DNA of 64,000 nt from a virus (IMGVR_UViG_3300044655_001360), one strand, 5' to 3'; positions 16,717-49,799 are shown, numbered from the stretch's first letter. Notes: a model not told the origin generated them from the sequence alone. Program-made: numbers and translations.

Positions 16717-16745
16717 AGTTTAGTCTAAAAGATAATAGAAGTCAA
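16717..16745 (-). promoter_or_regulatory. Sigma70-like promoter with the 12-mer box in its spacer
   Basis: TTGACT-N17-TAAACT; the spacer contains ATTATCTTTTAG. Confidence 0.7.
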
Positions 16746-16748
16746 CCA

Positions 16749-17102
16749 TTAAATCCATCCGCATGGAGTATACCGTTCAGCCCATCGCCAATAAAGACCT
16801 ACCTTTGGTATATGCTTATCAGCAAATCTTCTTTCAGCAGAAGTCCATTTTGATTGAATCGGTAATGGTGCATGATAAGCTAGATAATGCAATTGACCAT
16901 GTATTTTCATCAAGGTTTTGCGATTTATAGTAGTTTGACTTTCCCAACCATAATACTTCTCAAACGCATAGTTTTCCCATTGACCTCTAAGTTTGGCTTT
17001 AAGTTTGAATATTGGACAGAAATACTGTGGTCTAAATCTAATAGTATAAGGAGCAGTGTCGTTTTCAACTGCATCGAAGAATTCTTCAGGAGTCATAATC
17101 AC
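16749..17102 (-). CDS. Hypothetical protein
   Basis: 117-aa ORF with a GAGGTG RBS. Confidence 0.55.
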   Translation of the reverse strand: MIMTPEEFFDAVENDTAPYTIRFRPQYFCPIFKLKAKLRGQWENYAFEKYYGWESQTTINRKTLMKIHGQLHYLAYHAPLPIQSKWTSAERRFADKHIPKVGLYWRWAERYTPCGWI

Positions 17103-17145
17103 CTCAAATTAAAAGAGCAGATTATCTAATCTGCTCTTGTCTGTT

Positions 17146-17376
17146 TTACGAATTTTGGTATTTCTTGTTTCTAGGATTATTACCTAGATACGGTTTTCGC
17201 GGACGTTTACTTGTAAGATAGGCAGTGTAATTTGCAGAATCTCTGCGATATAACTCCGCTGGGTTGTACTCTCTTAACTCTAAACGGCAGAAATCAAGAT
17301 ATGAATCTAAATCGTCAAAGATTTGGTCAACTGTACGTCGTCCATGATAAAAAACTGATGGTTCAATAGTAGCCAT
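17146..17376 (-). CDS. Hypothetical protein
   Basis: 76-aa ORF with an AGGA RBS, an upstream CTAAATA and a downstream hairpin terminator. Confidence 0.6.
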   Translation of the reverse strand: MATIEPSVFYHGRRTVDQIFDDLDSYLDFCRLELREYNPAELYRRDSANYTAYLTSKRPRKPYLGNNPRNKKYQNS

Positions 17377-17443
17377 TGTTTGGTTCCTAATTGTGTTATT
17401 GAAAAGGGTTTAAATTGCTTACTTAAGCAATAGTATTTAGCCC

Positions 17444-18040
17444 TTACAATGACTTCGTTGTTATTGTCATCCTTCGCATTTTCCCAACTTTTGCAGGAGT
17501 CCAGATAATATCACCCATCTTAGCATAGAATGATTTCCAATATCCTACGTCTGGAATGTGCTGCGTCGTTCGTTTTTCAAAATCAACGTAGTACACCTGT
17601 AGACCCTTATCAAATGCCTTTGGGATTAGACCCATCCAATATCGCGCACCGTCCCAAGACTGTCGAGAGTCAGTTAATACGGTTCCGTATGTCGGTATTA
17701 AATATTCAAAGAACACCTTATCAGGTAATCCGGTGGTGATTGGATCAATCTTAGAATGCCACACACTAGCTTGCCACACAAAGGTACCAATCAACGGATC
17801 GGTTTTTGTATTAAATTCCATATCATACGTCACTCGTTGGATGCTAGAATCTAAACAATAGATTTCCTTCGAATGAATATAAACCTTTGAAGTAGCTGAT
17901 AATGAAAATAATTCATCCTTGTTTGGCATTCGAGAAAACTGCAAATACAATTCATGATTATTTTCTTTGTTATGCAACTCATTTGGTTTATACGTGCTAA
18001 ACGTCTGTGGCATTTCGTTAATGAATTCCGATGCTTTCAT
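17444..18040 (-). CDS. Probable internal head protein, paralogue of 27784..28404 (possible GNAT-like fold)
   Basis: Leader MKASEFINE. Shares 'DS.Q..DG..[YF]W......AF..GL.VYY.D' with 27784..28404. Confidence 0.5.
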   Translation of the reverse strand: MKASEFINEMPQTFSTYKPNELHNKENNHELYLQFSRMPNKDELFSLSATSKVYIHSKEIYCLDSSIQRVTYDMEFNTKTDPLIGTFVWQASVWHSKIDPITTGLPDKVFFEYLIPTYGTVLTDSRQSWDGARYWMGLIPKAFDKGLQVYYVDFEKRTTQHIPDVGYWKSFYAKMGDIIWTPAKVGKMRRMTITTKSL

Positions 18041-18043
18041 AAA

Positions 18044-18235
18044 TCACCAATTACTCACATCTGTAATATCAATCGTAATTTGCAATGAACCATGTTCAAA
18101 CTTAACATAATCATTAACCCCAATACCAGATTCGGATTTCTCCCAAATCTCAAACTGTGGTATATCTTCAAACCTATCAGCGATTTCACTCAACTTACTG
18201 ATCTGTTCACGGGTTAATATCGTAACTCTTTGCAT
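18044..18235 (-). CDS. Hypothetical protein
   Basis: 63-aa ORF with a GGAG RBS. Confidence 0.55.
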   Translation of the reverse strand: MQRVTILTREQISKLSEIADRFEDIPQFEIWEKSESGIGVNDYVKFEHGSLQITIDITDVSNW

Positions 18236-18276
18236 AATGTCTCCGAAAAAGGGTGGCTATTAACCACCCTAAAAGA

Positions 18277-19181: not shown

Positions 19182-20201
19182 TTAAAAAGAAAACAACGAA
19201 TTGAAGAAGTTATCCTGACGAGTTTCACTCAAATCCCAGTTGAGTACACCAATCAAGTTGTCCAACTTGTCATCAATCAACTTCTCTTCCATGATAGCTT
19301 CATCAAATGGAAGTTCCTTAAACCATTGAGGTAAACGTTGTTCATCAACTGGATACGCTACGCTCTTGAATCCCATCGGGTTATCTTTAAGTGTACAAAC
19401 CACCACTTTGGAACCATCGATAATAGACATAGTATACTTGTCACTATTCATGCGTTTTAAGGTATTCCAATTGATACTAGCTCTGACTTGACCTGGCATC
19501 GTTGCTTTGCCTTTATCGGTTAATAACGTACCATACTTGGTAATGTTATTAGCTCGTTTTGGTGAACCCTTTTCCCAACCATTCCATTTCTTGAATTCTT
19601 GTCTGAATTCGGTAATGTAATTGATTGTATCCTCTTGTGGTTTGCCATTGAGAACCATATCTAATACATTACTTAAGAAGTCTTGAATTGCCGGTGGCGT
19701 GTCAGATCGTCTTAAGTCCAAACCCATTGCTTTTACTTTACCAGCTTTGCCATTCACATCCATACGTTTACCTTCCTTGTCGAAGTAAAGAACCGCGTAT
19801 CGTTTTTTGGTGATGAACAGCGCTTTAGAACCAATGATCTCGCGGCCTGCTTTGATTACTGAACCACGTGCTTTTGGGCAATGAAATGCAGTAGACATGA
19901 ATTTTGGGAAAGTCTCGTTAACTTCCTCACCAATCGCATCATAAAACTGAATGATTGATTCTTTATCCCATGGGATTTGACCAGAATCAATCAATGGTTT
20001 CAATGTTGGGTATGCAGAGAAATACACCGAGTTATGAATTAAAATGTCGTTACCAAAAAACCATGGATGATCTTCGTTTTTCATACCAATGTCATATACA
20101 TATTCATCCTCTGCTTTTCTTAGAAGTTTAACTGACTTCACTTTTCCACGGTGTAAACTTATTGTGTTAGTTTGTTGCATAATACCATTCCTTAATTTCA
20201 T
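19182..20201 (-). CDS. polB: Family B DNA polymerase, C-terminal part, with N-terminal split-intein C-fragment (20031..20201)
   Basis: 'YVYDIGM...FFGNDILIHN|SVYF' gives intein blocks F/G plus the +1 Ser. Followed by PolB motifs KKRYA and KAMGLD..RSD. The real start may be MQQTN at 20180. Confidence 0.93.
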   Translation of the reverse strand: MKLRNGIMQQTNTISLHRGKVKSVKLLRKAEDEYVYDIGMKNEDHPWFFGNDILIHNSVYFSAYPTLKPLIDSGQIPWDKESIIQFYDAIGEEVNETFPKFMSTAFHCPKARGSVIKAGREIIGSKALFITKKRYAVLYFDKEGKRMDVNGKAGKVKAMGLDLRRSDTPPAIQDFLSNVLDMVLNGKPQEDTINYITEFRQEFKKWNGWEKGSPKRANNITKYGTLLTDKGKATMPGQVRASINWNTLKRMNSDKYTMSIIDGSKVVVCTLKDNPMGFKSVAYPVDEQRLPQWFKELPFDEAIMEEKLIDDKLDNLIGVLNWDLSETRQDNFFNSLFSF

Positions 20202-21171
20202 TGATGACAGTCTCTTTGTCTTTATACCATGCTTTTTCCCAGATTACAAATACTTCATATCCTTGATTATTGGCATATGTACGTTTTGCTTGATCGCGGG
20301 ACCAAATGAAATAAGCATGTTGTCCTTTTTGTTTAAAGTAAAAATCTCTATCATATAAGTCTGGATCAGCATGCCAGTATGATCCATAAAACTCAATCAA
20401 CTTCTTACGCGATGGATCACCGTAATCATATGGTCCAATATGTGGATTATCTAGTCTAAAGGATAATTGTAAATCTGGCATTACTGCAACTAAATCCTCA
20501 TATGCAGATAATTCGATTTTTGATTGTATTCGTTCAACCGATGCACGACCAATACAAAACGCATCATACTTTTCAGTTCCATCTTCAAGACCATAAGTTT
20601 CCACAAAATATTCCAATGACGTGGTATATCGTTGTTGCTCGCAGTATATATTCCAATTAACCATACCAGCAACTACACCATGGCGGTCTATCATGTTTTG
20701 TATCGTTTGAGATCTTGAATTATTATACGCATTGAATTCATCAATAGTCATACCATATTTTGCTTCCTTGTACTCGAAGGTGTTAGTTTCTGCCTGTACA
20801 TCACAGTAACTTTTCCATCTGATCTTTCCTTCTTCTTCGCCGTATTTTTCAATCATCGCGGCTTCTGTAACACCGCACAATTCTTTTAAGTTTTCTGACA
20901 CGATTGGCGATGTTGGATACCTATGTATATATTCCGCTATTGTAATACTTTCAACACATTTACTTTTCAAATGGGTTGGTGTGATACGTTTATATGATTT
21001 CCCACACATTGCACATTTCACTTGGCTATTTGGGTCCGCAGAATCGACGGATCTTCTACTAACACCATACTTGTTAGTCTTTATGGTTATCCCATTAACA
21101 GGGGGGTTAACGCCCAACGAGTTCAATAACTCACCATACAACTGTTTTGTTTCATCGTCAACATTGTTCAT
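20167..21171 (-). mobile_element. Free-standing Vsr-like (very-short-patch/DUF559-type) homing endonuclease gene between the polB halves
   Basis: N-terminal CxxC..H..C Zn-finger, KYG.E.G repeats and C-terminal 'IEFYGSYWH...RD..K...A...GY.V.VIWE'. Has its own AAGGA RBS. Confidence 0.8.
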
Positions 21172-21183
21172 GCTATATCCTTA

Positions 21184-23370
21184 TTAGTTTATAAAATCTG
21201 AGTGTTTCACCGATATCAATATATCAGTCTCTAAAATGTCAATCGGTTTAGTTTCAATTAAATTACCATCTCTCTCAACCATAACTGAATGGTCTTCAGT
21301 TACAATTATGGTGTTTCCAAGTTCATCTTCAATTTCGTACAAATCCTTTGATACTTTATGTCGGTATATGTAGTTAATATTACCATAATACGGTGCATCA
21401 TCTTTTAGACTATACGATAAAACTTGTAGATCTGGGTTACATGCATACTCCTTATCACCATTATTCCAAAACTCAGTACACCCGTTAAACAACTCTTCGA
21501 TTGTCTTAACTCCTTGATTTGTATGGTGTTTCGTTTCGGAAAATTCGGAATCCGTGTCGTTATAAATGATTGATTTTCCTAGATAATTATATTCACCACA
21601 TACAATCTCGTTAACTTGTGCTGTCATATGACGGGTAATCGACCGTCCAGTTAATGTTGTACTTTGACCAATGCGTTTATCGAAAAACCTACAACCACTG
21701 TTCAAAATCGCCCCATAGCAGGAGTTCAAAAGTAATTTGGTATACTGTTCTTTAATACTCCAGTATCTTTCCTCGATGTCAAGTCCAGCATCCCGAGCAA
21801 CTTTCATTTTTTTCTGCATTACTTGACGATCAGCATACCATTGTTTTAACAAACCGGGAATGATTCCCTCTTTTTCAAAAGTAAAGATAGTACCATTTGC
21901 ACTTAACATCCATGATTGACCAGATTTGAAAATTAAATCATAGGTTTGAGCAGCACTAAGTTCATCACTACTACCCTCTTCCCAATCTATAGTAAGCATA
22001 CGATTCGAATCTCTTGACATAACATCATCATATTCTAAAGTCGAAAATACGCCTTCCCAACATGAAGCAAACTTCTTACCTGTAGCCATTTGATCCGCAA
22101 TAAACTTATCAGTTGCCACTGGTCTAAGTTGACCGATAATAGTCTCTGGACTCATATTAAGTGCACGGATTGTACTAGGGTACAGCGAGTTGATATCTAA
22201 TGAAGCAACCCAATCATGTAGACCTTTTTTGGGATAAGCAACATACGCACCAGCAGCTTGCGTGTTTTCATTATCATTACGTGGCTTTCTATTAGGTGCA
22301 ATCTGCCCTTTACTATGCGCCTCATTGATAATAGCTTGTTCAATAGCTGCAACGGAACCTAACGTAGTTGGTAACAATACAGTACAACCATGAGCAGTCG
22401 TATTAGCCAAATCCATAAACTTCAACTTCTTATCCATTCTATCTAACAGTGCAACGTCTTGTCGGTTATATTCGATAAAAGTCTTAAAGTCTTGATTGTA
22501 TAGCTGTTCTAACGTACCATCATAAACAGTTTTATGGTCACCTAATTCATATTCAGCAATCGCATCTAATCGATAAGATGGCTTTTCTTCATGAGTATAC
22601 TTACGATAAATGTCCAAGTAATCCATATGAACTCGACCAACCAAATCGAAAGTAGTCGAAACCTTACCAAACTTCTCGAATTCACGTTTCTTAGGAGATT
22701 GATCCCATAAACAGAATCGACGAGTATCGTTCTTACTTAAAACCTTAGCAACACGATTAACGGTATATGGAATATCGAATGATTCAGAATTCCAACCACT
22801 TAATACATCAGCATCTTCGATAATAGTAAGGAACGTATCTAATAATTCCTTTTCTGTTTTAAAGATAAACGTATTCTCAAACTCAGCTACTTGCTCTTCA
22901 GCTTCTTTGATACTCATATGTTTTGGTGGAATTGCCAAACAAATCATAGTTTCAGACCACTGTAGATATACAGCAATAGAAACAATTGGCATAAAAGGAT
23001 CATCTGGTGCGGCATAGCCGCGTTCAGGACACATACTGGTCTCGATATCGAAATACGCGACATTGAGTTTAGGTGCATCTGCGTTAAGGTAATGGTCTTC
23101 AAGACAACGATAGGTAACATTGATATCACTTTCATATAACTTCTTGGTTTGACCAAATATAGCAATATTCTTATGATGTTCTTTGTGGGTTTTACTTTTA
23201 ACCCTAGACAATGGTTTACCTTTCATTGAATGATGGTTACCATTTGGGTCTTCGTAATAAAAGACATAGTTTGCTGGAAATTCTCGGTAATGGCGAATGC
23301 CATCTGTATCACGTTCAACTACGTGGATAATATCGCGATCTTTTTCATAAAAAGCATCTACATAACTCAT
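21184..23370 (-). CDS. polB: Family B DNA polymerase, N-terminal part, ending in split-intein N-fragment (21187..21549)
   Basis: Exo motifs FDIET, GWNS..FDIPY and YN.QD. Pol motifs DINSLYPS, KLLLNSCYG and YNDTD. Then 121 aa of intein (S-start, block B 'VTEDHS') and a TAA stop. Confidence 0.93.
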   Translation of the reverse strand: MSYVDAFYEKDRDIIHVVERDTDGIRHYREFPANYVFYYEDPNGNHHSMKGKPLSRVKSKTHKEHHKNIAIFGQTKKLYESDINVTYRCLEDHYLNADAPKLNVAYFDIETSMCPERGYAAPDDPFMPIVSIAVYLQWSETMICLAIPPKHMSIKEAEEQVAEFENTFIFKTEKELLDTFLTIIEDADVLSGWNSESFDIPYTVNRVAKVLSKNDTRRFCLWDQSPKKREFEKFGKVSTTFDLVGRVHMDYLDIYRKYTHEEKPSYRLDAIAEYELGDHKTVYDGTLEQLYNQDFKTFIEYNRQDVALLDRMDKKLKFMDLANTTAHGCTVLLPTTLGSVAAIEQAIINEAHSKGQIAPNRKPRNDNENTQAAGAYVAYPKKGLHDWVASLDINSLYPSTIRALNMSPETIIGQLRPVATDKFIADQMATGKKFASCWEGVFSTLEYDDVMSRDSNRMLTIDWEEGSSDELSAAQTYDLIFKSGQSWMLSANGTIFTFEKEGIIPGLLKQWYADRQVMQKKMKVARDAGLDIEERYWSIKEQYTKLLLNSCYGAILNSGCRFFDKRIGQSTTLTGRSITRHMTAQVNEIVCGEYNYLGKSIIYNDTDSEFSETKHHTNQGVKTIEELFNGCTEFWNNGDKEYACNPDLQVLSYSLKDDAPYYGNINYIYRHKVSKDLYEIEDELGNTIIVTEDHSVMVERDGNLIETKPIDILETDILISVKHSDFIN

Positions 23371-23860: not shown

Positions 23861-24118
23861 TTAATCTAACCGTTTAGTGATATCAAGGATAGCTTCAACT
23901 TCTTCCCAGTCTTCATTAAAGGTAGACCAATTGCCTTTGTGAGCAATCTTGATGGCTTTGTTGATAATAGAAGGTTTGATTTGAAGTTCTTCAGCTACTG
24001 CTTTTACAGTATCTTTAAGACCCATAGAAAGGTCTTCAACTTCACGTAGTACGTTAGAACCTTCATTGATTAAACGTTCTAATTTTGCTTTTTCTTCTGG
24101 ACCGTAGATTTTTGACAT
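23861..24118 (-). CDS. Small dsDNA-binding protein (T4 DsbA-like/transcription regulator)
   Basis: 85-aa helical ORF 'LKDTVKAVAEELQIKPSIINKAIKIAHK' with its own promoter and terminator. The family call comes from recalled similarity only. Confidence 0.45.
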   Translation of the reverse strand: MSKIYGPEEKAKLERLINEGSNVLREVEDLSMGLKDTVKAVAEELQIKPSIINKAIKIAHKGNWSTFNEDWEEVEAILDITKRLD

Positions 24119-24147: not shown

Positions 24148-24176
24148 ATTGTAAGTGAGTGGTTGGTAGTTGTCAA
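24148..24176 (-). promoter_or_regulatory. Sigma70-like promoter
   Basis: TTGACA-N17-TACAAT. Confidence 0.75.
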
Positions 24177-24283
24177 GCGTTATTTTTAGATACTTGAAAC
24201 TGCCAACTGAGAATGCAGTATAACATAGTAAAAACTAAAAAGCCAGCACGGTGGCTGGCTTCTTGTTCGATTATCTTTTAGAA

Positions 24284-25690
24284 TTAACGAAGTTTGTAGT
24301 GAACTGGGCGTTCATAACGACCGTCTGTTTCACGAGTTACTGAAATAAGGCGTTCACCATCATTTGATTTTACACGCACAGTTTGACCATATGAAATGTT
24401 ACGACCAGTTGGCCATTGGTCAACCAAACCTTCTGATTCTAATGCTGCGTTTAGAGTTTCAAACCAGTTTTGTTTAGCTTGATGTTTACCAAATGCTTCT
24501 TCGAATTCTTCGTCGAATGATTCTTGGAATGAATCGCCGATCATATCATCACTTGCTTGTTTTTGATAATGACCTTTGTTTTGTTGCATATACTGGTCAA
24601 TAGCATTACCATAAAGGTCTTTAACAACATGAACCAGTTGGGCTACTGCGTTAGCATCATTTTGGTTAGTAACGTGAGCTCTACCAATTGCTTTAATAGC
24701 ATCAACAAAGTCAACTGATTCATCGAAGTTATGCCATGCAAAGTCATAGAAATCTTCATCGAAGTCGGCAACAACATTATCAGGAACTGAATGATCTTGT
24801 TCACCACGGTTTGCTAAATCCATTTGTCTAGCCATTTGTGGGCGAGTTAATGTCGCTTCCGATAACACATCGAACATACGGAATTCACCACCCATGTTTT
24901 CGTATACCATACCAGCATAAAGTTCTTGTTTAACACCTTCGTATTTGGCACTAGCAACGCGTTGTGCCCATGCAAACAATTCAGTATCAACTGCATCAAT
25001 TTGTTGTTGACCACCGCTTTCTTGAACTAAAGTGACCATTTGTTTGAAAGTTAGTTTAGGTTCGATTGATTCCTTAACTGCTTTCTTTTTAGCTTGGCCT
25101 TTCCACATAGCGGCTGCTGCAACTGCTTTAGGGTCTTTAGCTCCACTTTTCGCTGCTGCTTTTTCAACTTTCTCGAAGCCTTTACCTTTTTTGCCAATAT
25201 CCTTACCGGCAACTGCTTTCTTAACTACTGCAGATTTCTCTTTTTTAGTTAAACCAGCACTTGGTTTAGAATCTTCTTTCATGTGTTGATCGAGTTCTTT
25301 TTTGAATGCTGCACCACCTTTACCATCTGGTTTTTTACCTTTACCAGATTGTGATTTTAATGCGTCGGTTGCAGTACCAGATTTAGCGGTTGGTGAAACT
25401 TTAGTAACTAAGTTTTTGAATTTTTCTTGTGCTGCGATTTGAGCAGCAGATTCTTCCAAATCTTCTTCCATGTCATCATCCAAACATTCAACTTGTTGTT
25501 CTTCGACTTTTTCTTCTTTCTTAGCTTTTGGTTTCTTTACCTTAGCTGCTTCAGTTAAAAGTGAAGATTGGCCTGCTAGTACACGTAATTGTGCACTTTC
25601 ATCCAATTGAATTGGTGATGGTAATGTGGGTGCTGCTACACCAGCTACTGGTGTTTCGATTGCATCGAGTTTATCTAAAATGTCTTTCAT
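24284..25690 (-). CDS. Probable prohead core/internal head protein
   Basis: Start at MKDILDKLDAIE. K/A/E-rich, with many [LVI]-x-E-[SA] candidate prohead-protease sites (LDES, LTEA, LEES, VKES, VQES, LSEA). Confidence 0.55.
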   Translation of the reverse strand: MKDILDKLDAIETPVAGVAAPTLPSPIQLDESAQLRVLAGQSSLLTEAAKVKKPKAKKEEKVEEQQVECLDDDMEEDLEESAAQIAAQEKFKNLVTKVSPTAKSGTATDALKSQSGKGKKPDGKGGAAFKKELDQHMKEDSKPSAGLTKKEKSAVVKKAVAGKDIGKKGKGFEKVEKAAAKSGAKDPKAVAAAAMWKGQAKKKAVKESIEPKLTFKQMVTLVQESGGQQQIDAVDTELFAWAQRVASAKYEGVKQELYAGMVYENMGGEFRMFDVLSEATLTRPQMARQMDLANRGEQDHSVPDNVVADFDEDFYDFAWHNFDESVDFVDAIKAIGRAHVTNQNDANAVAQLVHVVKDLYGNAIDQYMQQNKGHYQKQASDDMIGDSFQESFDEEFEEAFGKHQAKQNWFETLNAALESEGLVDQWPTGRNISYGQTVRVKSNDGERLISVTRETDGRYERPVHYKLR

Positions 25691-25700
25691 TTTGGGGTCC

Positions 25701-25955
25701 TTAAGGTTGTCTTTTGATGGGAGTTCCACCAAATAAGTTATCTTTTATATTTAGTGCGTTTTTAGCCGTACCATCTGAATTCGTTGGTTGAACCACTTTG
25801 GGTGGTTTCGGTGCTTTTGTTCCGGGTTTACCTGGGCTACCTGCGTAACTTTTTGATCTTTTACCAATGGCAAGATTTGGATTGTATACTGCCGCTATAT
25901 CACCTGCACTGGTTGCACCGGCACTAGCTTCTTCAAATAATTCGTGCAATCTCAT
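25701..25955 (-). CDS. Small probable head protein
   Basis: Leader MRLHELFEEA followed by 'SAGATSAGDIA'. Confidence 0.5.
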   Translation of the reverse strand: MRLHELFEEASAGATSAGDIAAVYNPNLAIGKRSKSYAGSPGKPGTKAPKPPKVVQPTNSDGTAKNALNIKDNLFGGTPIKRQP

Positions 25956-27552: not shown

Positions 27553-27553
27553 A

Positions 27554-28404: not shown

Positions 28405-28405
28405 A

Positions 28406-39918: not shown

Positions 39919-39946
39919 ATTATAACTAAAAGATAACTGATGTCAA
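39919..39946 (-). promoter_or_regulatory. Sigma70-like promoter with the 12-mer box in its spacer, driving the six-gene DUF1566 array
   Basis: TTGACA-tcaGTTATCTTTTAGt-TATAAT. Confidence 0.8.
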
Positions 39947-39993
39947 GCATATATTACTGTATTGTATTGCATTGTATTCTCGCGAGTAATGTC

Positions 39994-40015
39994 GCGAGCA
40001 CCGATAGGTGCGAGC
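39994..40015 (+). repeat. Hairpin element, copy 7
   Basis: GCGAG CACC GATA GGTG CGAGC. Confidence 0.9.
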
Positions 40016-40118
40016 CATAACCATTATGACAACTCAAATACTACCAAAATGGCAAACTAAATACAAGCAGTGCAGTACTTAACGCAGTTCAAACTTCAAC
40101 CAAAAAGGACTTCAAAGC

Positions 40119-41678
40119 ATGACGAGAAAAAGATCAAGACACACGGATTCACGCGAGTATTTCAACGAAACGCATGAACCAAATACCCCACCCCAAAGCA
40201 AAAAAGCCCGTAGTAAAAACTCCAGTAGTAAACACCAGCAGTCCCATCAACAAAACCACCAGCAACAACCAGACCCACAGCAAATGTCAATCGATCAACG
40301 ATTGGCTGCTAAACGTAAACGGGTTCAAATTCACCCCAAAAACCTTAGCCAAGAACAATACTTAATGGAACTTAACAATCCTAAAAAACAAATTGTTTTT
40401 GCTATCGGGCCAGCTGGTACTGGTAAAGCTCAACCACTGTTTTCAAAAATAAAAATTCCAGGCGGTTGGACTACTATGGGTGATATCGCAGTAGGTGATA
40501 AAGTCACTACTCCTGATGGTAATACCGCTAATGTCGTCGGCTTATTCCCACAAGGTAGTAAACCGACTTATTCAATCACCTTGCACGATGGTCGTTCTAC
40601 TCTAGCCTGCGCTGAACACCTATGGGAAGTATTCCTTGATAATAAACCTGCAGTCATCAATACACTAGAACTACTTAAACTGCGTTATCATGGCTCTATT
40701 ATGCCTTATATTCGCCTACCTAAACACGAAATCATGGACGATGTAGAACTACCAATCGACCCTTTCCAATTAGGTACTATGCTCTTAAAAGACGATAAAG
40801 CTATCCCAGCGGAATATCTCAACGCTTCTCGTTCACAAAAAGTTAAATTACTACAAGGTCTGCTCGATACCAGTATTCATGCTGTCGATTCTGGTAACCT
40901 AGTCTTTACTGCCGGTGCCTTGTTACAAAACTCTGTTGTCTACCTTGTGCGTTCTATCGGTGGTTCTGCTTGTATCAAAGACACTGGTGTTCATATTCGG
41001 TTTAGTATCGTTGAGAGTCCTTTAGAGTTAATGCCGGTGTTGTCAGTTGTCGAATCCGAGGTGGAAGAGTGTCAGTGTATCTTGATCGATAGTGAGGAAC
41101 ACTTGTATGTTACTGATAATTATATAGTTTCCCACAACACGCTAATCGCAACTCAGTGGGCCGTTGATCAATTTAAAGCTGGTAAATGTGATAAGATTAT
41201 TGTAACTAGACCTGCAGTTTCAAACTCAGAATCTCTCGGTTACCTTCCTGGTAATTTGGAAGAAAAAATGCTACCGTGGACTGTTGGTATGTTTGACGTT
41301 TTTTACGAAAACTGGACTAAGGCAGAAGTCGAGTGGTTGATGTCCCGTGACTGTATATCCATTTCCCCGATGTCGTATATGCGCGGACGTACAATGAAAA
41401 ATGCTTGTGTTATTGCAGACGAGGTGCAGTTATGTAACCCAAGCCAAATGAAAATGCTTCTTACTCGAATAGGTGATCAGTCAAAAATGATTTTGACAGG
41501 TGATCTCGCACAAGCAGATAGAGGAGAATTTAACGGGTTAAAAGATTTTATGGGTTTATATGACAAGGCGTCTGTGAATAAGGAAGAATCCCGAATTGCT
41601 ATTGTTAGGTTTAGCCATTCAGATATCGAGCGGCACCCGGCAGTTGCCGAGGTGCTGAAATATTACGGTGAAGATTAG
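40119..41678 (+). CDS. phoH: PhoH-family ATPase containing an intein
   Basis: GPAGTGK|intein|T, TRPAV, LGYLPG..EEK..P, YMRGRT, DE.Q, LLTRIG, TGDLAQ.D, DI.RHP. Confidence 0.93.
   Translation: MTRKRSRHTDSREYFNETHEPNTPPQSKKARSKNSSSKHQQSHQQNHQQQPDPQQMSIDQRLAAKRKRVQIHPKNLSQEQYLMELNNPKKQIVFAIGPAGTGKAQPLFSKIKIPGGWTTMGDIAVGDKVTTPDGNTANVVGLFPQGSKPTYSITLHDGRSTLACAEHLWEVFLDNKPAVINTLELLKLRYHGSIMPYIRLPKHEIMDDVELPIDPFQLGTMLLKDDKAIPAEYLNASRSQKVKLLQGLLDTSIHAVDSGNLVFTAGALLQNSVVYLVRSIGGSACIKDTGVHIRFSIVESPLELMPVLSVVESEVEECQCILIDSEEHLYVTDNYIVSHNTLIATQWAVDQFKAGKCDKIIVTRPAVSNSESLGYLPGNLEEKMLPWTVGMFDVFYENWTKAEVEWLMSRDCISISPMSYMRGRTMKNACVIADEVQLCNPSQMKMLLTRIGDQSKMILTGDLAQADRGEFNGLKDFMGLYDKASVNKEESRIAIVRFSHSDIERHPAVAEVLKYYGED
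40428..41138 (+). mobile_element. Class-3-type intein (237 aa) in the PhoH P-loop, with degenerate LAGLIDADG remnants
   Basis: Starts AQPL; block B HLW, block F CQCI, block G YVT...SHN; +1 Thr. Confidence 0.88.
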
Positions 41679-41689
41679 TTAGTAATAAG

Positions 41690-41712
41690 AAAAGGGCCTT
41701 ACGGCCCTTTTT
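41690..41712 (+). terminator. Rho-independent terminator after phoH
   Basis: AAAAGGGCC-TTAC-GGCCCTTTTT. Confidence 0.8.
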
Positions 41713-41721
41713 GTTTATATG

Positions 41722-41743
41722 GCTCGCACCTATCGGTGCTCGC
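41722..41743 (-). repeat. Hairpin element, copy 8
   Basis: Minus strand GCGAG CACC GATA GGTG CGAGC. Confidence 0.9.
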
Positions 41744-41829
41744 ATGATAAAAAGTATAAATACAAATGAGATTCGCGACTGTAGGAAGTCCAATCCCTCT
41801 AACATTTAATCTTAAAGGAGAATGCCAGC

Positions 41830-43134
41830 ATGAGTATTTATGCACCAGTCAAAAACCCAATTTCATTGGGTACACAATCAAACACTGTACAACCACAACC
41901 AACAACTTTACCCGAAGATAATCAAATCCCAGGGTATGTATATCGACTTACCTGTATACCTACTGGACAGTTTTATATAGGATCTCGTGTTGGGAATATC
42001 ACCGAAAAGAAAATGCCGAAAGAAGACTTTTGGATTAATTATCATACCAGTAGTGAATATGTCACTGAGTTAAGAATACTGTATGGGAAAGCTAGTTTCG
42101 AGTATGAAATCATTTACGAGGATTGTGATAGAGATAAAGTATTTTGGTATGAACAGGAACAAATCCAAAAACATTATAATGACCCATTGATTTTGAATAA
42201 ACAGGTTAATGGATATAAAGATAAACATAAAGGTAAATCTATACCAATATCCACATCAGGAAAACATAGAAAATGGGAAGTTACAGCACCGTGTGGTGTT
42301 GTGTGGGTAGTGAGTAACCTTGAACGATATTGCAAAAATAACGACTTAGATCCAGAAACGATGCGTGGTTTAGCGAGAGGAAAAGGTAAGCAATACAAAG
42401 GCTTTAAGTGCAGACTACAACCCAAATTACCAGTTCCAGCTTGGTATGTTACTATTGACATGGGTGACATTATAAAACCAATCGAACCTATTATGATATT
42501 AGGTAAAGTTCCGGTCATCGATATCAATATCAATCTAGTAGTACCGGAATTGCATGTGATTAAGTTTAAGCATAAGGAAAAGACTGAATCGTTGAGATCA
42601 CAGTATAAGAAATTAACTGCTGCTAAACCAGCAAAGAAACCAAAACCAGTGATACCATACAGCCCATCTGTTGCTAAAGGCTTGGCTAAAAAGAAAGCCA
42701 ATGGAACTCTTAGCTCGGCAGCTATAAAAGGTCAGGCAACACAGAGAAAGAATGGAACACATCAAAATGGTAACAAGGCTACCGTGTTAGCAACTAGAAA
42801 AGTGTGGGAGATTACTGATCCAGCTGGTAATATTACTATTACCAATGATTTGACTGGTTTTTGTAAAGAAAACGGCTTATCAGTTGCTTGTATGCGAGAT
42901 GTTGCATTTAATAGGCAGTTACAACATCGTGGTGGGTGGAAATGTAAAGAATGCGTTGGTGCTAAACCAGCAATTCATTGGGAGATTACGGACCCATTTG
43001 GTAATATAATTACAACTGATAATATAAAACAATTCTGCGAGGATAATAGTTTGAGTGAACCAGGTATGCGAAAAGTTGCACTTGGTTCCGCAAAATCACA
43101 TCGAGGCGGCTGGAAGTGTAAACGATTAGACTAA
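41830..43134 (+). CDS. Free-standing GIY-YIG-type homing endonuclease with three NUMOD-like repeat modules
   Basis: GYVY...FYIGSR and Y.TSS; three 'W.[IV]T.P.G......NL..[FY]C..N.L....MR..A.....GWKC'-like repeats. TATAAATA at 41755. Confidence 0.7.
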   Translation: MSIYAPVKNPISLGTQSNTVQPQPTTLPEDNQIPGYVYRLTCIPTGQFYIGSRVGNITEKKMPKEDFWINYHTSSEYVTELRILYGKASFEYEIIYEDCDRDKVFWYEQEQIQKHYNDPLILNKQVNGYKDKHKGKSIPISTSGKHRKWEVTAPCGVVWVVSNLERYCKNNDLDPETMRGLARGKGKQYKGFKCRLQPKLPVPAWYVTIDMGDIIKPIEPIMILGKVPVIDININLVVPELHVIKFKHKEKTESLRSQYKKLTAAKPAKKPKPVIPYSPSVAKGLAKKKANGTLSSAAIKGQATQRKNGTHQNGNKATVLATRKVWEITDPAGNITITNDLTGFCKENGLSVACMRDVAFNRQLQHRGGWKCKECVGAKPAIHWEITDPFGNIITTDNIKQFCEDNSLSEPGMRKVALGSAKSHRGGWKCKRLD

Positions 43135-43177
43135 AAGATAATGGGGCTCACGCGAGTGGGCCCTTTCTTTATAACAA

Positions 43178-43199
43178 GCTCGCACCTAGCGGTGCTCGC
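43178..43199 (-). repeat. Hairpin element, copy 9
   Basis: Minus strand GCGAG CACC GCTA GGTG CGAGC. Confidence 0.9.
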
Positions 43200-43215
43200 A
43201 ACACACAATAATAAA

Positions 43216-43503
43216 CTAAGCAGAAACAAACCCATGTTCACGTAGCAACATAAGGTCTACGAACTCCCAGCTGATAACCCGATAGAACATAGTCATAGCT
43301 TCACTATGATCGTCGTAGTCTCTTTCCATACCAGTATCATCTTCACCCCAAACGCAAACACGCCATTGGCCATCCCCATTTGTTGGATCTGGACCAGTCT
43401 GTGTAAAGGAAACACAAACAAGTTGCAGGTTATCCCAACCTTTTACTTGGTATGAAGGGTACCAATCATCGTGGGTTGGTTTGTATACGTCAATTCTTTT
43501 CAT
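43216..43503 (-). CDS. Hypothetical protein
   Basis: 95 aa with an AAGGA RBS. Confidence 0.6.
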   Translation of the reverse strand: MKRIDVYKPTHDDWYPSYQVKGWDNLQLVCVSFTQTGPDPTNGDGQWRVCVWGEDDTGMERDYDDHSEAMTMFYRVISWEFVDLMLLREHGFVSA

Positions 43504-43529
43504 AGTGGATTCCTTGTTTTAATTATCTT

Positions 43530-43865
43530 TTATAGGTCACGAACAGGTAATACAAAATACCGATTGTATGGTATATTGTTTTTGCCTGGTATGCAATACG
43601 TTTGGAATCCTTTTCTGAAATCTTGAGTCCAAATGGCTTTGTCGAAATCTGGGTTATCACATACAATATACGGGGTACATGACCAGTAACAAACTGGGTC
43701 AAACCTTTGCACCTGTAATCGATTATCAAGGTATATTTGATTCAATTCATCCATAGTTGGTAGTCTCCAACCTGTTTTACCCTCAATGTTTGCCATACAG
43801 TAGAATCTGGCATCATCGTAGTTTGCTTCAATTACTGCTGACTTCGGTGCTGTTTCAAAGTTCAT
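43530..43865 (-). CDS. DUF1566/Lcl-like protein, paralogue 9
   Basis: Family motifs (GWRLPT..EL, YWS, PVRDL). Confidence 0.75.
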   Translation of the reverse strand: MNFETAPKSAVIEANYDDARFYCMANIEGKTGWRLPTMDELNQIYLDNRLQVQRFDPVCYWSCTPYIVCDNPDFDKAIWTQDFRKGFQTYCIPGKNNIPYNRYFVLPVRDL

Positions 43866-44215
43866 AGGATTTCTCTATATCCGTTCCATTTGTAGATCAA
43901 CCTACCAAACCAACCGACTTCTGGTAGGGTTCTAACTGGGACTACCAAACGTGGAGTATTAAGTTCGTAGTCATTGATAAGTGGCCATGGTAACGACCAA
44001 CAATCACGTAAGATAGTATAACCATCAGCACTCCAACAACCACGGTTAGAAGCCCATTCCTCGTAATCTATGGATTTCGTAATCTTATGCAATTCGTTGG
44101 TGGTTGGTTCACGCCAGCCTACCTTACCGTCAATGTTAAGGGAGAAACAATACATCTTTGCTGTATTTTGTGGCATTTTAACCTGATATTCGGGTGGTGC
44201 TATTTCGATGTACAT
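43862..44215 (-). CDS. DUF1566/Lcl-like protein, paralogue 10
   Basis: IEIAP...YCFSLNIDGKVGWREPT...PVR. Confidence 0.7.
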   Translation of the reverse strand: MYIEIAPPEYQVKMPQNTAKMYCFSLNIDGKVGWREPTTNELHKITKSIDYEEWASNRGCWSADGYTILRDCWSLPWPLINDYELNTPRLVVPVRTLPEVGWFGRLIYKWNGYREIL

Positions 44216-44538
44216 AGTCGGTTAATAATCCGTTTGAAGAGATTTGGAGTTTTGAAAATAGGTTGTTTAGTTCTAATTGGCAAAACCAAACATTTACTAC
44301 TAACCCGTGAACTGGTGCAACCACCTCTGCCTTTTTGTAAGTTAATGTAAACATATCTGAACTCAAGACGAGGAGGTTCACTAGTCCAATAAGGGCCTTC
44401 AAATCTAAATTCAGCAACTGAGAGTTCAAGGAATTCTTTTTCTGTTGGTAAACGATAACCTAGCGTGAAGCAATAGAATACTGCTTCATCGTAGGGTAGG
44501 CGAGTCCAATACTTTTCTGGTGCTATTTCGATGTTCAT
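44200..44538 (-). CDS. DUF1566/Lcl-like protein, paralogue 11
   Basis: Start MNIEIAPEK; YCF...YRLPT..E...YWTS...PIR. Confidence 0.7.
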   Translation of the reverse strand: MNIEIAPEKYWTRLPYDEAVFYCFTLGYRLPTEKEFLELSVAEFRFEGPYWTSEPPRLEFRYVYINLQKGRGGCTSSRVSSKCLVLPIRTKQPIFKTPNLFKRIINRLCTSK

Positions 44539-44554
44539 ACGGTTTTCCTTAATA

Positions 44555-44576
44555 GCTCGCACCTAGCGGTGCTCGC
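44555..44576 (-). repeat. Hairpin element, copy 10
   Basis: Minus strand GCGAG CACC GCTA GGTG CGAGC. Confidence 0.9.
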
Positions 44577-44582
44577 GTTGAT

Positions 44583-44894
44583 TCAATTATCTTTTAGATC
44601 TCTCACTGGTCTAACTCCTAGTATTTCATGTGATTTCCCACCAGTTGAATGATATCCCGTGTCGAAAAGTGAGTAACAATACACGCAGTTATTATCATAG
44701 TCTACCTCAGTAGATGACCAGTAATACCCACCCAGTACAAAATCACTGTCTATTTTTCTTATTGACATCAATTCATCAATGGTTGGTAATCGCCAATCAT
44801 TTTTCCCATCGATATTAAGAGAGAAACAATACAGTTTAGCATCACTCCACGTAAGTCTTGTTTCGGTTGATTTAGGTGCTATTTCAATATTCAT
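44583..44894 (-). CDS. DUF1566/Lcl-like protein, paralogue 12
   Basis: Family motifs; ends VRPVRDLKDN. Promoter TTGACT-N17-TAGACT at 44926..44954 overlaps a 12-mer box. Confidence 0.75.
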   Translation of the reverse strand: MNIEIAPKSTETRLTWSDAKLYCFSLNIDGKNDWRLPTIDELMSIRKIDSDFVLGGYYWSSTEVDYDNNCVYCYSLFDTGYHSTGGKSHEILGVRPVRDLKDN

Positions 44895-44950
44895 GTGATT
44901 CTCGATTGGTTGTTATGTTTCAAGTAGTCTAAAAGATAATGCGAACAAAG

Positions 44951-45247
44951 TCAACTATTATCTTTTAGATCTCTCACTGGTCTAGCGTAACGAATGTGTT
45001 CTTTAAAGCTATGAGATCCCAGTTCGGAATGCCAGTTGTAGCATACTATCCAGTCGCCATCGTCGTTGGAAGTCCAATACCATTCATCGGAACTTTCAAT
45101 GTTTTGTGATTTTAGAAACTCTTGTTCCTTATTGGTAGGTAAACGCCATCCAATTTTCCCATCAATGGTCAACGAAAAACAATATAATTTAGCATCTTCC
45201 CAGTTCAATTCTTTTTGGAATTCAATAGGTGCTATTTCGATGTTCAT
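44951..45247 (-). CDS. DUF1566/Lcl-like protein, paralogue 13
   Basis: Family motifs; ends RPVRDLKDNS. Confidence 0.75.
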   Translation of the reverse strand: MNIEIAPIEFQKELNWEDAKLYCFSLTIDGKIGWRLPTNKEQEFLKSQNIESSDEWYWTSNDDGDWIVCYNWHSELGSHSFKEHIRYARPVRDLKDNS

Positions 45248-45355: not shown

Positions 45356-45383
45356 ATTATACCTAAAAGATAATGGATGTCAA
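45356..45383 (-). promoter_or_regulatory. Sigma70-like promoter with the 12-mer box in its spacer
   Basis: TTGACA-tccATTATCTTTTAGg-TATAAT. Confidence 0.8.
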
Positions 45384-45480
45384 CATTTTTCGATGGGTAA
45401 AGAAAAGGGCCTATTGGATAGACCCTTTTGATACTTTGCGAGCTCAATATGACTAAAAGATAATCGTGTATTACCTCCTA

Positions 45481-45502
45481 GCGAGCGCCGCTAGGCGCGA
45501 GC
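45481..45502 (+). repeat. Hairpin element, copy 11
   Basis: GCGAG CGCC GCTA GGCG CGAGC. Confidence 0.9.
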
Positions 45503-47837: not shown

Positions 47838-47929
47838 CTAAAAGATAATTGAAAACGACTAAAAGATAATTGCTTTTAGTATTGAAAACGGCTAAAAGAT
47901 AACTGAACCATAAGGCAATTATCTTTTAG
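47838..47929. repeat. Cluster of four 12-mer boxes (three direct, one inverted)
   Basis: CTAAAAGATAA[T/C] at 47838, 47859 and 47892; ATTATCTTTTAG at 47918. Confidence 0.85.
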
Positions 47930-47945
47930 CCAAGGAAAGACTAGT

Positions 47946-48443
47946 TTACACCAATTCTGGTGTTTCGTAAAGGGGTTTCATGACATCAGTAACAACAAAC
48001 ATTTTCAACGAATCTACGTCAGAGGAAACAAGGGTATAACCTTTGTCATCAAGCCATTCGTATGCGTTTGTGATCGTATCTCGACCATCTTTGATATCGA
48101 TATACACCGATTGGTTATATCTAGCCGAATGAATCTTTAGTTGATAAACACCAGCATCGTTTTTCACTGTTGAAATTTCCAACACATGAGAAACGGGTAC
48201 ATTGTATTCGAAAAGATCAGGTACTGCACCTTCAAAATCGCAAACTATATGATTCATCATACAACCTAACACAGTGATATTCTTCTTCTGCAACCAGTTC
48301 ATTGCTGTGAAATCTGGTGTAGTAGTGTGATCTCGTGGAATGGTAACTCGTTTGTTATACTTCGGATCGAAGATTTCCAAACTATCAGGACTATTTTCTT
48401 CTTCGTAGGTATAATATAAAACTCTGGTATAAACTTGTGACAT
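47946..48443 (-). CDS. Hypothetical protein
   Basis: Start taken at MSQVY (AGGAGA RBS). Confidence 0.55.
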   Translation of the reverse strand: MSQVYTRVLYYTYEEENSPDSLEIFDPKYNKRVTIPRDHTTTPDFTAMNWLQKKNITVLGCMMNHIVCDFEGAVPDLFEYNVPVSHVLEISTVKNDAGVYQLKIHSARYNQSVYIDIKDGRDTITNAYEWLDDKGYTLVSSDVDSLKMFVVTDVMKPLYETPELV

Positions 48444-48451
48444 GGATTCTC

Positions 48452-48799
48452 CTAGCACTTAGATGGAATGTATTGATCGCCAATAGGTGGTTCTACATCA
48501 GATACAAGTAAAATTGCATCATTGTCTGCTCGTTGCAGATCCATTGGACCTTCTGGTGTTTCTACTCGTACTTTTCGTGTCCAACGAGCATGTTCAAGCA
48601 AAATCCAATCATCCTTCTTGATATATTTCTGATCCGGACCCACCATGAACACTTGAGCCCAACGAGGGCGTATACCGTGCGATTTTCCTGAATCAGAATT
48701 TAAAATTATACCAGATTGTAAAACGGTTTCACTATGACGCATGTTTCTGATTAAAATGTGATCCCGTATAGTTCGATCAATTGTAATTACTTCACTCAT
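48452..48799 (-). CDS. groES: Co-chaperonin GroES-like protein
   Basis: D.IL...E....SGIIL.....K.......V..VGP pattern. Confidence 0.8.
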   Translation of the reverse strand: MSEVITIDRTIRDHILIRNMRHSETVLQSGIILNSDSGKSHGIRPRWAQVFMVGPDQKYIKKDDWILLEHARWTRKVRVETPEGPMDLQRADNDAILLVSDVEPPIGDQYIPSKC

Positions 48800-48807
48800 A
48801 GAAAGCC

Positions 48808-49005
48808 TTAAATGTTACGTGGATTTTGATTGTAATAGTCTTGAAGTAATTCTTCGCGTGATTTGACAACTTTGCCATTTTCCAAAAGATCACCGCGAGC
48901 GTTGGATTTCATATTACCAACAGCAACACTGGATTCATTTTCTAAAGCTAAACGAGCCATGTCAACGGATTTACCTTTTGCAGATTTATAAACTTGATCA
49001 GTCAT
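48808..49005 (-). CDS. Conserved-type small hypothetical protein
   Basis: YKSAKGK.VDM..L...NE...AVGNM..NARGD; CTAAATA upstream. Confidence 0.6.
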   Translation of the reverse strand: MTDQVYKSAKGKSVDMARLALENESSVAVGNMKSNARGDLLENGKVVKSREELLQDYYNQNPRNI

Positions 49006-49034
49006 ATTTGTTCTCCTGATTAATAAAGCAGTAT

Positions 49035-49271
49035 TTAGTCAGCCATCTCAGCTGCGAAGTTTGGAAAGTTAAGATATTTGAATAGGAGTCGATCATCCCA
49101 TAGTTTGCAGATTCTATCTAATTCTTCCTGTGAAGCGTTTTCGGCATCAAAGTTTTCGATAGCGAATGCGTGGAAGTTTTCTGGTTCGATGTGATAGATG
49201 TTACTAGCATAGGTGCCATTGAGTGATACTACGGTTACGTCGCCTGCATCGGTTGTATTTAAAGTAATCAT
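49035..49271 (-). CDS. Hypothetical early protein
   Basis: 78 aa with an AAGGA RBS and promoter TTGACA-N17-TAAACT at 49305..49333. Confidence 0.6.
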   Translation of the reverse strand: MITLNTTDAGDVTVVSLNGTYASNIYHIEPENFHAFAIENFDAENASQEELDRICKLWDDRLLFKYLNFPNFAAEMAD

Positions 49272-49343
49272 TTGTAAAGTCCTTGTTAAGTTGAAAGTGG
49301 GTGTAGTTTAGTTGAATTAGAATTGTTTGTCAAGGGTTAATTA

Positions 49344-49799
49344 TCAACGCAAAAACTCATTAATGGCTAAACCGTATTTGATACTATCGATTTTATGGAC
49401 ACCGATAAGGAATAAGACGTAGCTTGACACTGAACTACCTCTACCTACACCCCATACTATATTATGGGCACGTAGGGTATCAACAATATAAATCATGCAT
49501 TGTAGGACTGGGAATAGGTTACGTGATTTAAACTCGGTTAGTTCTAATTCCACTCTTGCGACTTCCGTATCAGTGCTGCATTTGGCTAAACACCATTCTG
49601 CGATATCTAAGTTTTTGTAGGAATCTGGGATAAACCAGTTGTTTGGATTGGTTTCTTCGAGTGGTACTGGGTAATTAAGTCTTTCATCTAAAAGATAATT
49701 GACGTACTTTGAAATGTCATCGGAACATGTGCAATATCCCAGAATATCTGGGCCATGTCTTAAAACGCCTGTGACTAATTGGTCTACAGTATTGGTCAT
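49344..49799 (-). CDS. Stand-alone fragment of DNA polymerase III alpha (DnaE) domain
   Basis: R...EL......GVGRGSSVSSYVL.LIG...ID..KY.L matches DnaE GPGRGSAAGSLVAY.LGIT.IDP..Y.L. Confidence 0.8.
   Translation of the reverse strand: MTNTVDQLVTGVLRHGPDILGYCTCSDDISKYVNYLLDERLNYPVPLEETNPNNWFIPDSYKNLDIAEWCLAKCSTDTEVARVELELTEFKSRNLFPVLQCMIYIVDTLRAHNIVWGVGRGSSVSSYVLFLIGVHKIDSIKYGLAINEFLR

Follow-up and report, generated by a model that had tools for sequence, protein, structure and literature searches.

Our analyses have identified a word of 12 nucleotides (nt), CTAAAAGATAAT (referred to here as the box), which is present in 21 exact copies, counting both strands, in the 64-kilobase (kb) viral sequence IMGVR_UViG_3300044655_001360 (the whole of which is referred to as the window), where only 0.03 copies are expected from dinucleotide-preserving shuffles. 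The box is a real, strongly non-random and lineage-wide cis element that is tied to early promoters. We propose, with moderate confidence, that it represents an asymmetric operator for a putative sequence-specific DNA-binding regulator of early transcription, located within cassettes that resemble the promoter-early stem-loop (PeSL) cassettes of T4-type phages (Arbiol et al., 2010, PMC2839356; Comeau et al., 2014, PMC4122927), and that recombination at its copies would be a side effect. The anatomy of the box, its registers (viz. its distances from promoter elements), its polarity and its conservation across relatives were all directly observed.

A k-mer census ranks the box well ahead of every other 12-mer in the window, and its core TAAAAGATAA is counted 31 times. 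When up to one mismatch is allowed, 40 copies are found in comparison to 0.73 expected, and the ratio of exact to one-mismatch copies is about 1:1, whereas a ratio of about 1:24 (0.03 vs. 0.70) would result from chance. A first-pass annotation, made from the sequence alone, had reported 20 exact and 10 one-mismatch copies of this word and had estimated that well under one copy should occur by chance. All 20 exact copies were recovered at the same coordinates and on the same strands, together with one additional copy at 2967–2978 (-), and the 10 one-mismatch copies are likewise real, with 9 further copies located at 16105, 20456, 21397, 33002, 58341, 58612, 62104, 62945, and 62959. The shuffles bear out its estimate. 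In 57 non-redundant contexts, the information content is close to zero just 5' of C1, and after T12 only G14 (72%) and A15 (67%) are partly conserved, extending the box weakly on its 3' side to CTAAAAGATAATnGA (nGA). This sharp 5' edge and weak nGA extension indicate that the unit is a bounded 12-mer, as opposed to the core of some longer repeat. The tolerated mismatches fall chiefly at positions 1, 10, and 12. A literature search for the 12-mer returned chance hits in unrelated papers only, and the box shares at most a hexamer (GATAAT, with Fur) with the consensus sequences of DnaA, Fur, IHF, and MotA, its invariant CTAAAA half being unmatched.

The window comes from an uncultured jumbo phage of lake water that is a distant relative of T4. 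The public runs that match it are lake-water or freshwater metagenomes, and its family-B DNA polymerase shares 49% identity with that of the Pseudomonas jumbo phage PA5oct and is related to those of other jumbo T4-like phages. This polymerase, at 19182–23370 (-), appears to be split into at least two open reading frames (ORFs; 21184–23370 and 19182–20201), with an endonuclease-like ORF (20167–21171) between them. Other products of the window include a Lon-like ATPase/protease, a PhoH-like protein, a clamp loader, dCMP deaminase, a MazG-like pyrophosphohydrolase, a DnaJ-like protein, a SegE-like GIY-YIG/HNH endonuclease, two ART-PolyVal ADP-ribosyltransferases, and a DsbA-like small DNA-binding protein. 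No tRNA genes are found in the window, and a megablast search of GenBank phages with 30–50 kb revealed no close relative. Related contigs, all of which carry the exact 12-mer at 3–15 copies per 10 kb, were obtained from IMG/VR by two pattern scans. Nine of these contigs, checked in full, contain 5–45 exact boxes each, in comparison to 0 for a reversed control pattern. The contigs L001–L006 are 77–96% identical to parts of the window between 28 and 50 kb, while two others, G005 and G008, align to it at an RNA gene region only. G005 (also L060) is 72 kb in length, an estimated 20% of its genome, and contains 45 exact boxes; extrapolation from the contig densities gives an estimate of about 100–200 boxes per genome. 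Orthologous boxes mostly stay exact while their flanks are 77–93% identical, with some turnover. The box at 45363, for example, is exact in four relatives whose flanks are 82–93% identical, the boxes at 37737, 36988, and 47838 are exact in several relatives, and some copies have been gained among the relatives.

The copies of the box are largely excluded from the interiors of genes. The window is about 91% coding, yet only 2 of the 21 exact boxes (2967 and 49688) are found in coding interiors, while 3 supply the final codons of genes and the remainder are intergenic. For the window, G005, and G008 together, about 17 of 85 boxes are found in coding interiors, although these sequences are 87–93% coding. 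Outside coding interiors, 44 boxes are in the sense and 24 in the antisense orientation, the latter being mostly copies in promoter spacers and members of arrays. The exact box at 2967–2978 (-), antisense in the gene 2237–3997, has no recognisable regulatory context, and that at 49688–49699 (+), antisense in the gene 49344–49799, is kept in L005 and lost in L002. The earlier statement that no copies occur in the structural blocks was thus nearly right, the exceptions being the exact copy at 2967 and five one-mismatch copies.

At promoters, the box is placed in a few discrete registers. Between 32 and 50 kb, the window contains four sigma70-type promoters that match the consensus at 12/12 positions and four that match at 11/12, and 31 strong promoters are present in G005. 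Three of the four 12/12 promoters (TTGACA-N16/17-TATAAT) hold an inverted box within the spacer, separated from the -35 by 3 nt and from the -10 by 1 nt. These promoters, all of the form TTGACA-16-TATAAT on the minus strand, are located at 33085–33112 (box 33092–33103), 39919–39946 (box 39926–39937, with the single mismatch T12C), and 45356–45383 (box 45363–45374). The same design, TTGACT-3 nt-box-2 nt-TAAACT, is found in the promoter TTGACT-17-TAAACT at 16717–16745, which lies ahead of a phosphoribosyltransferase-like gene (16180–16689) and whose box at 16725–16736 (+) is inverted relative to the minus-strand genes. A composite promoter at 44926–44968 (-) consists of a forward box (44957–44968), 2 nt, TTGACT, 8 nt, and an inverted box (44929–44940) whose TAG begins the -10 (TAGACT), so that the two boxes form a convergent 12-base-pair (bp) inverted repeat around the -35; the forward box also supplies the last codons of the DUF1566 gene 44951–45247. 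All five promoters in which the first-pass annotation had placed the box in the spacer are real consensus matches, and four of them share one register, but in the fifth (44926–44954) the box overlaps the -10 instead.

The two elements of the composite promoter correspond to two designs that are seen in G005. In the first of these designs, a forward box is located exactly 2 nt upstream of TTGACA, placing its centre near -43.5, and in the second an inverted box lies 8 nt after TTGACA, its last three bases starting the -10 (TAGAAT or TAGACT). Both designs occur together in some G005 promoters, as they do at 44926–44968 of the window. Among 118 non-redundant copies of the box, 11 are forward and 2 nt upstream of TTGAC[AT]; about 11 are forward and 9–12 nt upstream when one hexamer mismatch is allowed (4 with an exact TTGAC[AT]); 5 are inverted at 3 nt and 8 inverted at 8 nt downstream of the -35; and all of the remaining registers are nearly empty. 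In total, 19 of the 49 strong promoters (at least 11/12) of the window, G005, and G008 have a box, and in every one of these the GATAAT end of the box points to the -35. Inverted neighbours within 100 nt of each other show the same polarity, 17 pairs being convergent and only 1 divergent. The sole divergent pair (62945–62970), consisting of two one-mismatch boxes 2 nt apart within the gene 62579–63613, is probably a coding coincidence.

Strong promoters that have no box carry, at the position that the box occupies in the 2-nt register, a variable A-tract, often with an upstream stop codon; a generic UP function therefore does not need an exact word. The stems of the cassettes covary and hence are variable, whereas the box is invariant. 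Such modules are seen in positions 1–17000 of G005, where an array of small ORFs is found, each following a module of about 75 nt that comprises either a box or an A-tract, TTGACA, a stem around the -10, a conserved leader ACCTTAACAAAGCACTAC, GGAG, and the start codon, with stems that covary between modules. A shorter leader, ACCTTAAC, is also present ahead of the window genes at 36208 and 33059. Two other promoter-related roles of the box were considered. A forward box acting as its own promoter, with GATAAT as the -10, was encountered only in isolated cases (position 5171 of G005, and weak hits), and since about half of the copies would then fire antisense, this is rejected as a general role. 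TTGA (the end of the box plus TGA) as a -35 is likewise rejected, since none of the inspected copies of the window has a suitably spaced -10. The T4-type late promoter word TATAAATA, which is unrelated to the box, has only 3 occurrences in the window.

Other boxes are located at the ends of genes, chiefly in the stop region of paralogous genes of about 100 amino acids belonging to the DUF1566/Lcl_C family, whose C-termini read ...VRDLKDN-stop. At least 11 small paralogues of this kind, with conserved N-terminal and variable C-terminal halves, are present at 32570–45247 (-), and their copy number varies among close relatives; in L004, for example, several additional copies lie between the positions equivalent to 32560 and 32694. 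Exact forward boxes on the minus strand form the last codons of the DUF1566 genes 44583–44894 (box 44586–44597, encoding LKDN and the stop) and 32570–32908 (box 32573–32584, followed by a hairpin at 32537–32558 and a promoter at 32499–32526). One-mismatch forward boxes, also on the minus strand, are found at the ends of the DUF1566 genes 36275–36574 (box 36278–36289, 10 nt upstream of the -35 of the promoter 36240–36267), 38026–38316 (box 38029–38040, 9 nt upstream of the -35 of the promoter 37991–38019), 39044–39340 (box 39043–39054, read in a different frame, with the stop at box positions 9–11), and 43530–43865 (box 43522–43533, with the stop at positions 2–4; exact in L005 and L006). The DNA word thus persists despite a frameshift (39043) and a premature stop (43522), and its retention where the protein reading is not kept points to selection at the DNA level. 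The box terminates ORFs in each of the three frames (TAA at positions 2–4, TAA or TGA at 9–11, and TGA at 13–15), and they include the SegE-like gene 41830–43134 (+), which is unrelated to DUF1566 and whose stop is the TAA (positions 2–4) of the box at 43131–43142 (+), with a terminator (43143–43164) directly after. This gene encodes a free-standing endonuclease with GIY-YIG and HNH domains; a copy of TATAAATA lies ahead of it at 41755–41762, the gene is absent in L002, and the L001 copy is 77% identical. A forward box at 24270–24281 (-) is located 2 nt past the stop of the gene 24284–25732 and is followed by a terminator-like hairpin and the promoter 24148–24176. Further boxes occur directly after the T-runs of terminators and, in G005, beside tRNA genes.

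A hairpin of 21–22 nt, GCGAGCNCC-GNTA-GGNGCGAGC, with tandem G.A mismatches and covarying inner stems, is present in 11 copies in the window (at 19155, 23715, 29306, 29378, 32537, 36727, 39994, 41722, 43178, 44555, and 45481) and frequently lies 9–16 nt after a box. It follows the box at 44586 by 9 nt (hairpin 44555–44576), and the box at 45453–45464 (+) is followed after 16 nt by a hairpin on the same strand (45481–45502), in a module that opposes the local gene direction. Two mosaic junctions with relatives are located inside or at this hairpin.

The sharp invariance of the box in more than 100 non-redundant contexts, its fixed registers, its polarity toward the -35, and its intergenic placement are most readily explained by sequence-specific recognition of double-stranded DNA near the promoter, and the contrast between the invariant box and the variable A-tracts and covarying stems leads to the same conclusion. 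We infer from these features the binding of a protein, and with it the candidate identity of that protein and the possible sign of its effect. According to the proposed mechanism, a phage-encoded protein would bind beside the -35 from either side, with the same end of its site facing the -35. Where the box lies in the spacer or overlaps the -10, the bound protein would block the host RNA polymerase, resulting in a global shut-off or tuning of early promoters, and copies centred near -43.5 or further upstream may either block the contact of the C-terminal domain of the polymerase alpha subunit (alpha-CTD) with the UP element or recruit the polymerase. Like the stoperators of mycobacteriophages, the copies at gene ends, after terminators, and in arrays could act as insulators, as roadblocks, or as landing pads for cooperative binding. 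The cassette order is an upstream stop codon, the box, an optional hairpin, the -35, the -10, a Shine-Dalgarno sequence, and the start codon, and the estimated 100–200 copies per genome would provide microhomology for the loss and gain of cassettes. The suggestion of the first-pass annotation that the word is a protein-binding site thus fits the anatomy best, as a reading of the sequence; among the binders that it listed, a transcription regulator is favoured, and a dedicated recombinase is without support. That annotation did not recognise the DUF1566/Lcl_C stop regions in the gene-end copies, the coincidence of the box with the A-tract of box-less promoters, or the resemblance to PeSL cassettes.

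One candidate for such a regulator is the DsbA-like protein encoded at 23861–24118 (-), which matches PF11126 at 26.4 bits (cut-off 25 bits) and phrog_639 ("transcriptional regulator"). Members of the DsbA family are small T4 DNA-binding proteins that bind A/T-rich sites and whose role is unknown (PMC2988020). The DsbA-like gene has its own promoter (24148–24176), and the next gene does not overlap it, unlike the arrangement of T4 dsbA and gene 33. As a binder of the box, the DsbA-like protein is only a candidate.

Several observations weigh against an operator read by a dedicated protein. Pfam and PHROGs scans of the window products identified no binder and revealed no repressor combining a helix-turn-helix with a stoperator domain, the only DNA-binding candidates of the window being the DsbA-like protein and a sub-threshold match to MazE/AbrB-like proteins (15851–16195). 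The 2-nt register coincides with the position of the generic UP-like A-tract of box-less promoters, and alpha-CTD might be the sole reader at this register. Twelve invariant positions exceed what a single small DNA-binding domain usually specifies, and concerted evolution of the repeated cassettes could contribute to the exactness. Neighbouring direct boxes show no helical phasing (Rayleigh p about 0.4–0.6). Lastly, sites turn over between close relatives: the 32573 box is absent in L004, the 45453 and 49688 boxes are degenerate or lost in L002, and the former is also degenerate in L001. The exact retention of most copies, together with such losses and gains, is the pattern of redundant regulatory sites.

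Among the other explanations for the box, the one that survives best, although we consider it unlikely, is that the box is a multi-purpose building block of mobile promoter-terminator cassettes of the PeSL type with no dedicated binder. Its copies would serve by turns as a UP-like A-tract for the host alpha-CTD, as a stop in all three frames, and as the arm of a stem with an inverted copy; recombination and gene conversion would keep them identical, and the box would in turn promote the shuffling of cassettes. The cassette order seen here does match the published description of PeSLs (PMC2839356, PMC4122927), the box takes the position of the A-tract of box-less promoters, and ORFs do end in the box in all three frames. 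Two junctions within repeats can also be read in its favour. A DUF1566 cassette at 44598–44956 is extra in the window and missing from L001, L002, L005, and L006, and here the crossover falls within a direct repeat of 28 nt of which the box is a part (copies at 44586 and 44957); L002 also lacks 41746–44554, with the junction inside the 22-nt hairpin. These two clean junctions are instances of recombination within repeats. However, 5 of the 18 distinct alignment breakpoints are located within 16 nt of a box, which is significant under a uniform null (p = 0.0016) but not when only intergenic positions are considered (p = 0.23), and a special recombinogenic role of the box is therefore not supported. 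The sharp edges of the box oppose the simple spread of longer repeats, and the invariance of C1, T2, and G7 is left unexplained by a UP function, since generic A-tracts serve most strong promoters. Neither UP nor stop roles account for the inverted copies in spacers, the array at the MazG-like gene, or the copies in the leader of the RNA gene, and a stem could form with a pair in either order, yet 17 of 18 pairs are convergent. In lake-water DNA runs (Logan contigs), the ends and joints of unitigs are often located by boxes, hairpins, and DUF1566 paralogues, an observation that has no bearing on mechanism.

The part assigned to alpha-CTD by this explanation recalls T4, in which ADP-ribosylation of alpha-CTD by Alt and ModA modulates early promoters (PMC2988021). 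The two ART-PolyVal genes of the window, at 26165–26740 and 26740–27612 (-), are adjacent (Pfam E = 1e-22 and 2e-16), recall Alt and ModA in this respect, and are possible counterparts of T4 Alt/ModA/ModB. Each has a one-mismatch box near its 5' end, within a stretch that is duplicated between the two genes.

The three remaining explanations each account for a subset of the copies and conflict with the register data or the gene content. The first, which we regard as improbable, is that the box acts at the RNA level, copies in the sense of the mRNA pairing with antisense copies in a non-coding RNA or in neighbouring transcripts and thereby guiding processing, decay or translational control. The non-coding RNA concerned is a Polynucleobacter-1 RNA (Rfam RF01718) located at 37519–37669 (-) within about 37290–37936 (68 bits vs. 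a gathering score of 37), which has a 12/12 promoter at 37908–37936. Between this promoter and the RNA core, two boxes on the plus strand (37737, exact, and 37824, with one mismatch; 37737–37835) are found inside repeats of about 53 nt. Two freshwater metatranscriptome runs (Logan contigs) cover scattered parts of the window, the RNA gene most deeply, with 37380–37751 having the deepest coverage of the stretch; neither the starts nor the ends of transcripts are readable from them. Twelve exact bases suit base pairing better than reading by a protein, the leader of this RNA has two or three antisense boxes, one inverted box abuts the Shine-Dalgarno sequence of the MazG-like gene, and the metatranscriptome coverage of the RNA gene, which includes the 37737 box, lends weak support. 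However, the best-defined copies, in spacers and upstream of the -35, would be transcribed by read-through only, the registers are features of DNA, both orientations are similarly frequent, and a 12-bp duplex rich in A and U would be weak.

An origin of replication or a partition site, in which the boxes would be iterons and their dispersed copies secondary, is very improbable. Iterons of plasmids and phages are direct repeats about two helical turns apart, with inverted (operator) copies at promoters. Two clusters bring them to mind. An AT-rich, ORF-free repeat region at 36819–37205, beside the strongly promoted RNA gene, has six boxes (36819 and 36865 on the plus strand, the latter with one mismatch, and 36918, 36988, 37119, and 37194 on the minus strand) and is conserved, with turnover, in L014, L020, L026, and L033. 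An array at 47838–47929, directly upstream of the MazG-like gene (start 47828), consists of boxes at 47838, 47859, and 47892 (one mismatch) on the plus strand and 47918 on the minus strand, with start-to-start spacings of 21, 33, and 26 nt and a copy number that varies among relatives. The 21-nt direct spacing at 47838 and the inverted copies at promoters recall iterons, but the boxes are dispersed genome-wide, with no consistent phasing and no adjacent initiator gene. Most copies are single, occurring at promoters and gene ends across more than 45 kb, neither a Rep-like nor a ParB-like gene lies beside the clusters, and the GC skew (the strand bias of G over C) has no clear switch there; the origin-binding or parS-like role suggested in the first-pass annotation would be applicable to these two local clusters only. 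Least probable of all is that cassettes are moved or inverted by a site-specific recombinase or endonuclease whose target is the box, since, although DUF1566 cassettes are bracketed by inverted boxes (a promoter copy and a gene-end copy), one cassette indel is flanked by direct boxes, and the gene for the SegE-like homing endonuclease ends in a box and is missing from L002, the window contains no recombinase gene, the spacing of inverted boxes ranges from 14 to 33 nt with no fixed core, the observed junctions are explained by homologous exchange in repeats of 22–28 nt, and an enzyme that cuts a word of such genome-wide density would be self-destructive.

Judged by analogy, the closest mechanistic precedent for an operator of this kind is the stoperator, while the closest architectural relatives of its surroundings are the PeSLs. 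In Cluster A mycobacteriophages, a monomeric two-domain repressor of the L5 gp71 type reads an asymmetric 13-bp site at more than 20 promoter and intergenic positions (PMC9283540). The box is similar in being an asymmetric word of 12–13 bp with more than 20 copies per genome, located at promoters and in short intergenic gaps in an orientation that is tied to context. It differs in that those phages are temperate siphoviruses whose binder is the immunity repressor, whereas the window belongs to a T4-related jumbo phage, and in that the orientation of stoperators follows transcription throughout, whereas the copies of the box within promoters are inverted relative to those upstream.

PeSLs have the order upstream stop within an A/T-rich tract, -35, -10, stem-loop, Shine-Dalgarno sequence, and start codon, and are excised as mini-circles during infection (PMC2839356, PMC4122927). 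The modules described here resemble them in being repeated composite units of a T4-related phage, probably in hyperplastic regions, with the stop of the upstream gene in an A/T-rich tract just ahead of a sigma70 -35/-10 that is close to the consensus, a stem-loop that adjoins or overlaps the promoter, and a Shine-Dalgarno sequence and start codon thereafter, and small ORFs appear to be gained or lost at the modules between close relatives. The stem-loop takes several forms: covarying stems surround the -10 in G005, the -35 is flanked by convergent box pairs, and the G.A hairpin at 32537–32558 is located between a box and its promoter. The upstream tract of PeSLs, however, is merely A/T-rich, whereas here it is an invariant 12-mer, which is also found inverted in spacers, over the -10, in arrays, after terminators, and in the leader of the RNA gene.

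A box in the 2-nt register spans about -49 to -38, corresponding to the proximal subsite of the UP element, the alpha-CTD site of strong sigma70 promoters such as T4 early promoters (PMC2988021), and it contains an A-tract. UP elements, however, are degenerate A/T tracts bound to one orientation and position and are never exact 12-mers in spacers, arrays, and gene ends; their position (-38 to -59) and A-tract fit the 2-nt register, and the remaining registers do not fit. The T4 MotA box is, similarly, a short phage-specific word at which a phage activator acts next to sigma region 4 (PMC2988021), but this 9-bp box is centred at -30 and replaces the -35, whereas here the consensus TTGACA is kept and the box flanks it, and the two sequences are unrelated.

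The box is thus most likely an operator-type site within PeSL-like cassettes, a variation on known kinds of element and not a new category. A bolder form of this proposal, which we put forward only tentatively and regard as doubtful, is that in this lytic T4-related jumbo lineage a dedicated monomeric protein clamps early -35 regions from either side and insulates transcription units by means of one operator of 12–15 bp. If true, this would represent a stoperator-type genome-wide silencer of early genes outside temperate phages, and it would suggest concretely how early promoters might be shut off in the T4 superfamily, a step that is listed as unexplained in T4 (PMC2988021). The array at 47838–47929 provides a ready probe for fishing out the binder. 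In metagenomic contigs of this clade, the box also represents a useful marker by which early transcription units and the borders of cassettes can be located, and its surroundings indicate that the PeSL-like cassette architecture reaches jumbo relatives of T4, with an invariant element added to it. If a dedicated reader exists, the box would constitute a simple genome-wide switch for early genes in widespread uncultured giant phages of fresh water.

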